A stretch of DNA of 59,870 nucleotides from an uncultured bacterium (lineage in GTDB: Bacteria > Pseudomonadota > Gammaproteobacteria > Burkholderiales > CAIKXV01). Position numbers and translations under genes: made by a program. Below the pieces are notes generated by a model. The model had not been told where the DNA came from and made no database searches. It worked only from the letters and a program-made list of their open reading frames with translations. Within the stretch, counting starts at the first letter, position 1. Each line of letters opens with the position of its first letter. Where the stretch lies: NCBI GenBank assembly GCA_903873475.1, contig CAIQON010000235.1, positions 1 to 59,870 on the forward strand. The letters run 5' to 3'. This document shows positions 58,207 to 59,870 of the stretch, piece by piece.

Positions 58207-59127
58207 TCAGATCGACGGCGGGTCTTCGCGCACGATGCGCTCGGCGAACTGCGGGTCGACATAGTCTTCATATGTGCCGGGCTTCGAGATCGCGCCGCAC
58301 GACAGCATCGCGTCGCGCTTCCACTCGAGCCCGGCGCGCTGGACGATCGGGTCGGTGCTCCAGACGCCTGTGGCCTTGTAGCCGTCGAAGCATGCGGCCA
58401 GCATGTCGTGTGGGACATCGGGCAGGTAGCCGGACACGACCCCGGCCAGTTCGGCGCCCGAGTGCGCCGCGATCCACTTCTGGGTGCGGTGCATCGCCCG
58501 CGTCACGCCCAGCACCGTGTCGGGATGGCTGCGGATGAACGCACGCGTCGTGTTGAGCGTGGTGTAGCAGGCCAGGCCGCGGTCGGAGGCGCGGTACCAG
58601 ACATGGCCGATGCCCTCTTCGATGGCCGCCTGCGCGAGCGGCTGGAACACCTGGATCACGTCGACCTCGCCTGCGCGCAGGGCAGCCACGTTCTCGGCCA
58701 TCGTGCGCTCGGGCGCGCGAAGCACCTGCCCGGGATCGATGCCGGCCAGCACGAGGTCGCGCTGCAGGCAGATCCAGGGCGTGGGCACTTCGCTCACCGT
58801 GGCGACCCGCGGACCGACCAGGTGCTGCATCGTGAAGCCCGGGTTCGGCGCGCGCCCGAGCACGAAGAACGGATCGCGGCCGACCACTTCGCAGAACGCC
58901 ACCGAATCGGACGCGGGGTCCTTGTCGAGCGCGATCATCAGCCGCATCGGGCCGCCCCACGACACCTCGGCGCCGCCGGCCGCAAGGATCTGGATCGTCT
59001 CGGCCGAGGTCTTCGGCGTGATCATGCCGACATCCAGGCCTTCGGCCCGCCAGGCGCCGAGTTCGGCGGCGGCGTAGAAGGGCGCATAGAACAGCGCACG
59101 GAAGTTCTCGATCAGGGTGAGTTTCAT
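58207..59127 (-). CDS. NMT1/THI5-like ABC-type substrate-binding protein, no signal peptide
   Basis: ENFRALFYAPFYAA...EGLDV, GGPMR, G.VDVIQVFQP; starts directly with the mature-like sequence. Confidence 0.8.
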   Translation of the reverse strand: MKLTLIENFRALFYAPFYAAAELGAWRAEGLDVGMITPKTSAETIQILAAGGAEVSWGGPMRLMIALDKDPASDSVAFCEVVGRDPFFVLGRAPNPGFTMQHLVGPRVATVSEVPTPWICLQRDLVLAGIDPGQVLRAPERTMAENVAALRAGEVDVIQVFQPLAQAAIEEGIGHVWYRASDRGLACYTTLNTTRAFIRSHPDTVLGVTRAMHRTQKWIAAHSGAELAGVVSGYLPDVPHDMLAACFDGYKATGVWSTDPIVQRAGLEWKRDAMLSCGAISKPGTYEDYVDPQFAERIVREDPPSI

Positions 59128-59265
59128 CGGGGCCTGTGCTGCGGACGATCGGAGCGAGGTCGGTGATCCTACAATGCATCACGGGGGCGTGCTGACGGGC
59201 ACGCCCGACGCCGGACTTACAATAGAATGCGGCCACCTCGCGCCGCACGAACCGGAGGAACCACG

Positions 59266-59859
59266 ATGTCCCGCCTCGATCCACTGCCCATCGGCGCAGT
59301 GCCCGAATTGCAGGAAACGTTCGAGAAGCACCTGGCCTCGAACGGTTACGTCCCCAACAGCCAGTTGATCATGCAGCGCCGCCCGAAGCTGGTGAAGGCG
59401 TGGCGCGTGCTTTCGCAGGCCGTGTTCGATCCCGATGGCGAGGTGAGCATCGCGTTCAAGCGCCTGCTCGCCTATGTCGTCGCGCGTACCCACGGCTGCC
59501 ATTACTGAATGGCGCACAACGCTGGGGGGTCTCTCCAGCAGGGTATTCCGGAAGACAAGCTGGCGCAGGTGTGGGAGTACCCCACCAGCCCGTTGTTTCC
59601 CGAGGCCGAGAAGGTCGCCATCGAGTTCGCCATCGCTGCGGCGTCTCAGCCGAACGACGTGACGGACGAACTGTTCGACCGGATGAAGCAGCACTGGGAC
59701 GAAGGCCAGATCGTCGAGATCACGGCCCTGATCTCCTACTTCGGCTTCATGAACCGGTGGAACGACACGATGGCCACGCCGCTCGAGGACAAGCCGGCGG
59801 CCGAGGCGCAGGCACACATCGCCAGCCATGGCTGGGAGCTGGGCAAGCACGGCAGGTAG
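59266..59859 (+). CDS. AhpD/carboxymuconolactone decarboxylase-like selenoprotein (UGA = Sec in CHYU), 197 aa
   Basis: RBS GGAGG with ATG 59266. In-frame TGA 59506-59508 sits at the second Cys position of the AhpD motif GCxYCxAH, and the frame continues to TAG 59859 with typical AhpD-like helices (AEKVAIEFA...QIVEITALISYFGFMNRWND). SECIS-like hairpin follows. Confidence 0.85.
59509..59539 (+). promoter_or_regulatory. Bacterial SECIS-like hairpin
   Basis: UGA + 12 nt + stem GCUGGGG (59521-59527) paired with CUCCAGC (59533-59539), loop GGUCU, resembling the E. coli fdhF apical loop and spacing. Confidence 0.75.
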
Positions 59860-59870
59860 CGCAAAGGCAG

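Follow-up and report, generated by a model that had tools for sequence, protein, structure and literature searches.

Comparative and genomic analysis was carried out on a stretch of 59,870 nucleotides from an uncultured bacterium of the Burkholderiales (contig CAIQON010000235.1 of assembly GCA_903873475.1; the whole stretch is referred to here as the window). Results indicated that positions 59266-59859 of the window are very probably a genuine selenoprotein gene, in which a UGA codon is decoded as selenocysteine (Sec) and which has been mis-split in public annotation.

Reading frame and public annotation

A single frame ran from ATG 59266 to TAG 59857-59859, and its sole interruption was TGA 59506-59508, which is codon 81 of the frame (TGC CAT TAC TGA ATG GCG CAC). 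Translation of the TGA as U gave a protein of 197 residues with the motif C78-H-Y-U81-M-A-H84 (Table 1). The list of open reading frames (ORFs) held two same-frame pieces, 59227/59266..59508 and 59509..59859. An initial annotation of the window had described these as one frame split in two by the ORF track, and its coordinates, codons and 197-residue read-through were all exact. It had also expected standard annotation to split the gene, and this was borne out, as the exact 80-aa and 116-aa halves are separate entries in public collections, where their clusters have 20 and 47 members, respectively. The 80-aa half is carried in public databases as “hypothetical protein” and the 116-aa half as “alkylhydroperoxidase family enzyme”; the database names given to the halves, where there are any, are these two and “carboxymuconolactone decarboxylase family protein”.

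Codon 81 in related genes

A protein search over 5.8 billion proteins returned 1708 homologues, and column analysis was done on the best 120 of the 1708, which were full-length, 55-72% identical and 194-286 aa long. The column of residue 81 was Cys in 120/120 of these homologues, which agrees with the initial annotation, and C78, Y80, C81, A83 and H84 were invariant in all 120 Cys-form proteins. A protein database cannot hold whole Sec forms, so that the 120/120 defines the column and not the frequency of Sec.

A six-frame search of the tblastn type covered 61 genomes and produced 28 loci, 25 of them covering residue 81. Each of the 14 other species in the genus, and one genome of another family (G020), had a homologue with exactly one in-frame TGA, and the matches in relatives spanned residues 1-197 with one internal TGA. 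TGA stood at codon 81 in 24 of the 25 covering loci; the exception, from genome G051 (42% identical), had TGT and was without a stop. Several same-genus genomes hold two or three paralogues of the TGA-form gene.

A scan of the genome_contigs collection added 74 loci, nearly all from records titled metagenome-assembled genomes. After identical genes and hits below 50% identity had been removed, codon 81 was TGA in 60 distinct related genes and TGC or TGT in 23. Retention of the UGA extended to genes with only 54% protein identity and to at least two paralogous clades. All of the 60 TGA genes came from records with metagenome-assembled genome titles, most of which were labelled Burkholderiales or Betaproteobacteria. 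Eight loci (L040, L060, L064, L067, L074, L075, L106 and L110) come from metagenome-assembled genomes titled “Bordetella parapertussis”, “uncultured Streptomyces sp.”, “Streptomycetaceae” or “Enterobacteriaceae”; these taxonomic labels look unreliable and the genes look betaproteobacterial in type. In seven loci of one Sec clade (L066, L070, L072, L073, L074, L081 and L082), a Cys-form paralogue was located beside the TGA-form gene. This co-located paralogue was 41-44% identical to the query and had TGC or TGT at codon 81, with ACG GCx CAC AAT as the next codons.

A FastTree phylogeny of 120 proteins (59 Sec and 61 Cys forms, stop written as X, midpoint-rooted) placed the gene of the window within a 21-member Sec clade with a support of 0.966. 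Sec and Cys forms interleaved on this tree, with about 6 switches between them, and such interleaved forms are natural pairs for testing the benefit of Sec in the AhpD/CMD fold.

Hairpin downstream of the UGA

The RNA after the UGA contained the hairpin GCUGGGG / GGUCU / CUCCAGC, its stem beginning 12 nt and its apical loop 19 nt after the UGA, and the 7-bp stem, GGUCU loop and 12-nt spacing of the initial annotation were exact as described. The minimum-energy fold of the post-UGA RNA was this 7-bp hairpin (-11.8 kcal/mol). The model of the bacterial selenocysteine insertion sequence (bSECIS) given in a published figure legend has a loop of 3-9 nt, a stem of 4-16 bp, a G in loop positions 1-2, a distance of 16-37 nt from the UGA and a minimum free energy (MFE) of <= -7.5 kcal/mol (PMC13188914, Fig. 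2 legend). The hairpin agreed with each of these constraints (5-nt loop, 7-bp stem, GG, 19 nt and -11.8 kcal/mol).

The stem was in register in 60/60 of the distinct TGA genes, with 7/7 pairs in 44 and 6/7 pairs in 16, while the 23 Cys-form genes had 1-6 of the 7 in-register pairs, mostly 2-4. An alignment of 24 sequences yielded 19 distinct rows for a count of paired cells, with the 3' arm slid by 1-3 columns as control. Results showed that 99.2% of the stem cells were paired vs 32-62% in the slid controls. One stem pair varied on both sides (U-A in 11 rows and C-G in 8) and another on one side. A G was present within the first two loop positions in 60/60 TGA genes. The relatives conserve both the UGA and the hairpin in every distinct TGA-form gene.

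The codons of the hairpin also differed between the two forms. The Leu90 codon was CTC in 59/60 Sec forms vs 0/23 Cys forms, and the Gly87 codon was GGG or GGA in 58/60 Sec forms vs 3/23 Cys forms. Genome-wide usage, counted in 1550 long ORFs pre-filtered for a third-position G+C fraction (GC3) > 0.75, was 6.5% of Ala codons for GCT, 15.5% of Gly codons for GGG, 2.6% of Ser codons for TCT and 28.5% of Leu codons for CTC. GCT, GGG and TCT, which the initial annotation had called atypical, are rare in the long ORFs of this genome. Comparison of the Sec and Cys forms indicates that codon choice in the hairpin is constrained by the RNA.

Selenocysteine machinery

The genes selA, selB, selC and selD lie outside the window, as had been noted at the outset, and a search of the source genome (407 contigs, 100% complete, 5.73% contamination) found all four elsewhere in it. 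selA, selB and tRNA-Sec (anticodon tca) were located side by side on contig C368 (7200-10421), and selD on contig C237. The scores were 546.7, 422.9 and 409.6 bits for SelA, SelB and SelD, respectively. SelD (C237:4138-5079, locus L008) has its own in-frame TGA at SHGGG-U-GCKL (locus position 1531), and because SelD itself carries an in-frame Sec codon, this organism must be able to decode Sec.

SelA was found in 15/15 genomes of the genus and in G020, which has the TGA form outside the genus; G051, which has the Cys form and is 99% complete, gave no SelA match. The SelA search was extended to 50 further genomes reached via the loci (28 TGA-form and 22 Cys-form, with four loci left out). SelA was present in 27/28 of the TGA-form genomes (26 full length and 1 cut by a contig end). 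Among the 22 Cys-form genomes, 8 had a full or nearly full SelA, 2 had a 44-residue match in a 1039-aa frame and 12 had none. The contrast of 27/28 vs 8/22 is given without a test statistic, since related genomes are not independent.

Alternative explanations

A truly split gene, in which chains of 80 and 116 residues are made by TGA-ATG coupling and assemble noncovalently, is very unlikely. The ATG directly after the TGA, the conservation of both pieces with purifying selection on each, and the two proteins listed in databases would all fit such a gene. However, this ATG encodes Met82, which was found in 116/120 of the unsplit Cys-form homologues and is hence no sign of a restart, and inspection of the sequence upstream of ATG 59509 showed no Shine-Dalgarno-like motif comparable to that before ATG 59266. 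The cut would also fall inside the invariant C-x-Y-C-x-A-H, with loss of the second redox residue. A split gene leaves unexplained the register-locked hairpin and forced codons of the TGA forms, as well as their link to genomes with SelA (27/28 vs 8/22).

The presence of a complete selA-selB-selC-selD set, with a SelD that itself needs Sec decoding, and of a SECIS-type hairpin at SelB spacing, which plain read-through does not need, stands against recoding of the UGA other than (or other than only) as Sec. This could be near-cognate Trp or Cys read-through, or insertion of Cys on tRNA(Sec) under selenium scarcity. The inserted residue is not readable from sequence, freshwater habitats can be selenium-poor and relatives carry Cys at residue 81, but recoding of this kind was likewise given little chance.

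Selection was estimated as dN/dS against nine relatives that were 77-98% identical, one gapped relative being skipped. Values were 0.015-0.27 upstream of the UGA (residues 1-80) and 0.00-0.23 downstream of it (residues 82-197), and both halves are under purifying selection. A pseudogene, in which a TGC-to-TGA nonsense mutation killed an ordinary CxxC AhpD-like gene, would need a single base change, and the gene does lie at a contig end. It is nevertheless highly improbable given dN/dS of 0.00-0.23 downstream of the stop, the same TGA in 60 distinct genes (with protein identities as low as 54%, from at least two paralogous clades) and a frame with no further stops or frameshifts, each homologue having one TGA.

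The chance of a sequencing or assembly error at 59508 is negligible even for an assembly of metagenome type that has 407 contigs and 5.73% contamination, as TGA, and not TGC or TGT, was carried by contigs of three DNA runs, each from a different study, and also by 14 other species of the genus. The contigs of these runs (X1, X2 and X6, of which X1 may be the source sample) span the UGA and the hairpin (59506-59539) and show no difference in either; the sole change nearby is G>C at 59514 in X6, which is synonymous.

Evidence weighing against the selenoprotein gene

The preferred reading of 59266-59859 as a selenoprotein gene has to be set against a number of results. Sec insertion at codon 81 is a prediction from comparative and genomic evidence. 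The energy of the hairpin alone is ordinary for DNA of 68% G+C: the 40-nt stretch had a z of -0.41 with 68/200 shuffles folding equally well, and the 71-nt stretch had a z of 0.29 vs shuffles. Energy was therefore dropped as an argument and the significance of the hairpin was taken from the comparison with relatives. No Rfam family, bacterial SECIS included, was found in 59000-59870 (cmscan, E <= 10). In the stem, the sole two-sided change concerned one pair, and five of the seven pairs were invariant. The 60 TGA genes group into a few clades, and the tree has about 6 switches between Sec and Cys, so that the Sec vs Cys contrasts rest on few independent events. One TGA-form genome (G068, completeness unknown) gave no SelA match. 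RNA contigs of run X15 covered 59236-59443 and 59530-59669 with the UGA outside both, and they demonstrate neither transcription nor read-through.

The best NCBIfam matches of the protein were selenoprotein-aware AhpD/YciW models, all of them below the curated cut-offs. The score was 82.8 bits vs a cut-off of 310 for NF053654 (“YciW-related (seleno)protein”) and 56.6 bits vs a cut-off of 81.8 for TIGR01926 (“peroxidase-related enzyme”), over model positions 12-174 of 178. By the latter score the protein of the window is a relative of TIGR01926 and not a member by the curated threshold. The gene neighbourhood differs even among copies that are 93-98% identical and, not being conserved, gives no clue to the substrate.

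The four Rfam matches recorded in 59000-59870 (TYMV_upPK, two miRNAs and an S15 leader) were chance-level and were rejected. A promoter scan of the same stretch found no sigma-70-like site.

Other selenoprotein candidates in the genome

The source genome was scanned for in-frame TGA with GC3 over 0.78 on both sides and a bSECIS-like hairpin, a crude filter that missed selD and gives no census. The scan gave 20 hits, of which 8 were selenoprotein-like and 12 adjacent-gene-like. At least eight candidates were counted with SelD, namely four AhpD/YciW-like proteins (the gene of the window included), three UGSC-family proteins and SelD, and the apical loops of the seven other candidates begin 18-20 nt after the TGA. 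The coordinates are shown in Table 1.

Table 1. Features of the selenoprotein gene in the window and further candidates on other contigs (C) and loci (L) of the source genome
Feature	Position	Strand	Description
Predicted selenoprotein CDS	59266..59859	+	197 codons, Sec codon 81, TAG 59857-59859; AhpD/CMD-like fold family
Shine-Dalgarno-like GGAGGA	59254..59259	+	6 nt upstream of ATG 59266; read from sequence
Putative redox motif C78-H-Y-U81-M-A-H84 (CxxU..H)	59497..59517	+	aligns with Bmp8 G-C-M-Y-C-K-S-H
UGA predicted to be read as Sec, residue 81	59506..59508	+	codon conserved in relatives
Candidate bacterial SECIS hairpin	59521..59539	+	7-bp stem 59521-59527/59533-59539, loop GGUCU 59528-59532
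AhpD-like CxxU paralogue, L033	C48:13134-13667, TGA C48:13374		60% identical to window protein, C-N-Y-U-M-A-H
YciW/AhpD-like candidate	C93:3972-4538 (L113:490-1056)		189 residues, D-C-H-Y-U-G
YciW/AhpD-like candidate	C134:22734-23300 (L114:4-570)	-	189 residues, E-C-A-Y-U-S
UGSC-family candidate	C111 (L115)		U-G-S/G-C motif
UGSC-family candidate	C141 (L116)		U-G-S/G-C motif
UGSC-family candidate	C145 (L117)		U-G-S/G-C motif

The C48 paralogue is truncated at the contig end, and its hairpin reads GCCGGGG/CGGCG/CUCCGGC. This paralogue falls in a separate Sec clade that was found in most genomes of the genus. Both copies in the source genome (the gene of the window and the C48 paralogue) are located at contig ends. 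The C93 and C134 candidates, both distant and of the CxxU type, scored 44.6 and 54.0 bits with NF053654, respectively, both below the cut-off, and had loops 19-20 nt after the TGA; Pfam CMD matched the C134 candidate only (25.8 bits) and not that of C93. The UGSC candidates on C111, C141 and C145 scored 147, 143 and 102 bits with Pfam PF24696, and 128.8, 126.5 and 73.5 bits with NF041046 vs a cut-off of 125, respectively. Their apical loops contain GU and lie 18-19 nt after the TGA.

A Sec-containing formate dehydrogenase alpha subunit (FdhA) was not found genome-wide with TIGR01553, the best match (120.5 bits, contig C245) being a 971-aa frame without stops. From these candidates, the Sec machinery of this freshwater betaproteobacterial genus appears to serve small thiol-oxidoreductase-like proteins and not FdhA. 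This contrasts with a 2006 survey, in which FdhA was the sole selenoprotein family described for Betaproteobacteria (PMC1794560).

Protein family, proposed function and gene neighbourhood

Pfam CMD (PF02627) matched residues 40-109 with 28.9 bits vs a cut-off of 23, and the assignment to the AhpD/CMD fold rests on sequence homology. The closest solved structure was the debrominase Bmp8 (6ohi), with a single-sequence E of 2.6e-23 over residues 5-179 and about 30% identity, as counted from the printed match line. With a 46-sequence profile, Bmp8 reached an E of 9.4e-40 and the next entry (2prr) 4.7e-15. AhpD entries of the PDB matched weakly (6e8l, E 4.8e-07; 6k40, E 2.8e-04).

In the mechanism proposed, the ribosome would start at ATG 59266 behind GGAGGA and would not terminate at UGA 59506-59508, since the hairpin at 59521-59539 would recruit SelB-GTP-Sec-tRNA(Sec) and Sec would be inserted as residue 81. 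This would place a C78-x-x-U81-x-x-H84 redox centre where the Cys-form homologues have CxxC. The U81 selenolate could then attack an oxidised or electrophilic substrate, which may be a peroxide, a partner protein with a sulfenic acid or disulfide, or a carbon-bound halogen (as in Bmp8). C78 would resolve the adduct to a selenenylsulfide, and a cellular thiol reductant would recycle the enzyme. The product most likely acts as a thiol/selenol oxidoreductase, with chemistry and substrate judged from family membership only. The 197-aa Sec reading of the initial annotation stood, but its “peroxidase/reductase” was an overstatement of what family membership suggests. A peroxide or peroxiredoxin role like that of AhpD would be the conventional guess.

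A less conventional reading, which is improbable on present grounds, was proposed because Bmp8 is by far the closest solved relative. The clade might be a selenium-dependent counterpart of Bmp8, made up of AhpD-fold enzymes of freshwater Burkholderiales in which the U81 selenolate removes halogens or another soft electrophile. Dehalogenation by selenolate attack is the chemistry of the animal iodothyronine deiodinases. If the proposal were true, that chemistry would have been reinvented on a different fold, and the multiple paralogues per genome would have different substrates. A Pfam scan of 15 neighbouring ORFs, around the gene of the window and around its relative at locus L039, found no halogenase or bmp-like gene, and no AhpC/TSA-family match was present among these scanned neighbours, which gives no sign of linkage to ahpC.

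The upstream neighbour in the window is a divergent gene for an NMT1-type binding protein (58207-59127), and the gene at L039 is preceded by one for an EAL-GAF protein and followed by genes for TctC receptors. L039 and L040 are 98%-identical relatives, and DNA similarity to them was limited to 59240-59870, starting at 59240-59252, while L041 and L042 share the upstream gene with the window. A conserved operon was considered as a clue to function and was rejected, the surroundings being different among close relatives.

At L041, the upstream and AhpD-like genes are separated by an insert of about 1.45 kb (window 59156-59247 vs L041 2527-3982). On the minus strand, a terminator-like hairpin with a T-rich tail was seen at 59248-59227; it lies in the intergenic region, upstream of the divergent NMT1-family gene.

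Comparison with known systems

AhpD-like selenoproteins of this kind have been in print since 2005, and the gene belongs to a kind of selenoprotein known for two decades and is not a new kind of system. The “hidden selenoprotein” of the initial annotation was therefore hidden in the sense that the gene is mis-split in annotation, and not as a novelty of its class. A 2005 study of the Sargasso Sea reported 27 AhpD-like sequences (COG2128, CxxU; PMC1088965), and one of the GOS metagenome in 2008 reported 299 “AhpD-like 1” (COG2128, CxxU) and 70 “AhpD-like 2” (pfam02627, CxxU) sequences (PMC2398784). A 2026 review lists “AhpD-like protein, TIGR01926, CxxU”, “CMD-like protein, PF02627, CxxU” and several AhpD-related families with unknown functions (PMC13188914), and an AhpD-like family page is described for BSepDB (PMC13326102). 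This very subfamily may be listed in the supplements of earlier selenoproteome papers.

The subfamily is modestly new in that it lies under every NCBIfam cut-off, is stored as two proteins and is specifically close to Bmp8. Among the searchable papers, the literature search found none linking bacterial Bmp8 with selenocysteine, some of the matches being to the animal growth factor. No curated NCBIfam model catches the protein of the window at threshold, and an annotation model for the subfamily would correct dozens of the genes seen here.

The hairpin was compared with the SECIS of Escherichia coli fdhF, whose apical loop is bound by SelB. Both stand just 3' of the UGA with a small apical loop containing G and U, and as the fdhF loop reads GGUCU, the loop string GGUC(U) is common to the two. 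The fdhF SECIS belongs to another gene, and the stem in the window is without a bulged U and gave no Rfam match. The initial annotation had called the hairpin “fdhF-like”; this holds as a loose likeness only, and the hairpin resembles the general bSECIS model rather than fdhF specifically.

AhpD of Mycobacterium tuberculosis, an alkylhydroperoxidase that re-reduces AhpC, is of the same fold family, and its redox centre is likewise of the CxxC type with a His after it. In AhpD the attack is made by the second Cys of the motif, and a Sec in this position would be consistent with that. Unlike the AhpD system, no ahpC-type gene was present among the scanned neighbours, and the similarity to AhpD is distant.

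Bmp8, the tetrabromopyrrole debrominase of marine Pseudoalteromonas (6ohi and 6ohj), has G-C-x-Y-C-x-x-H, E-A-E and G-F-x-N-R-W-N in common with the protein of the window. The two differ in that Bmp8 has Cys where Sec is predicted here, and in that the Bmp8 gene lies in the bmp biosynthetic cluster, while the genes scanned around the gene of the window and around L039 encode transporters, regulators and a TauD-family dioxygenase. An identity of about 30% does not imply a shared substrate. According to a secondary source, the proposed debromination of tetrabromopyrrole by Bmp8 involves oxidation of the enzyme's cysteines to a disulfide (PMC5577590).

The closest likeness in kind is to the AhpD-like CxxU selenoproteins (COG2128/TIGR01926, “AhpD-like 1”). 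These belong to the CMD/AhpD superfamily, are about 180-200 aa long and uncharacterised in function, and have Sec in the second position of CxxU, aligned to CxxC, with a bacterial SECIS directly downstream, all of which corresponds to the predicted protein of the window. The latter is set apart from them by its scores under the TIGR01926 and NF053654 cut-offs and by its own clade.

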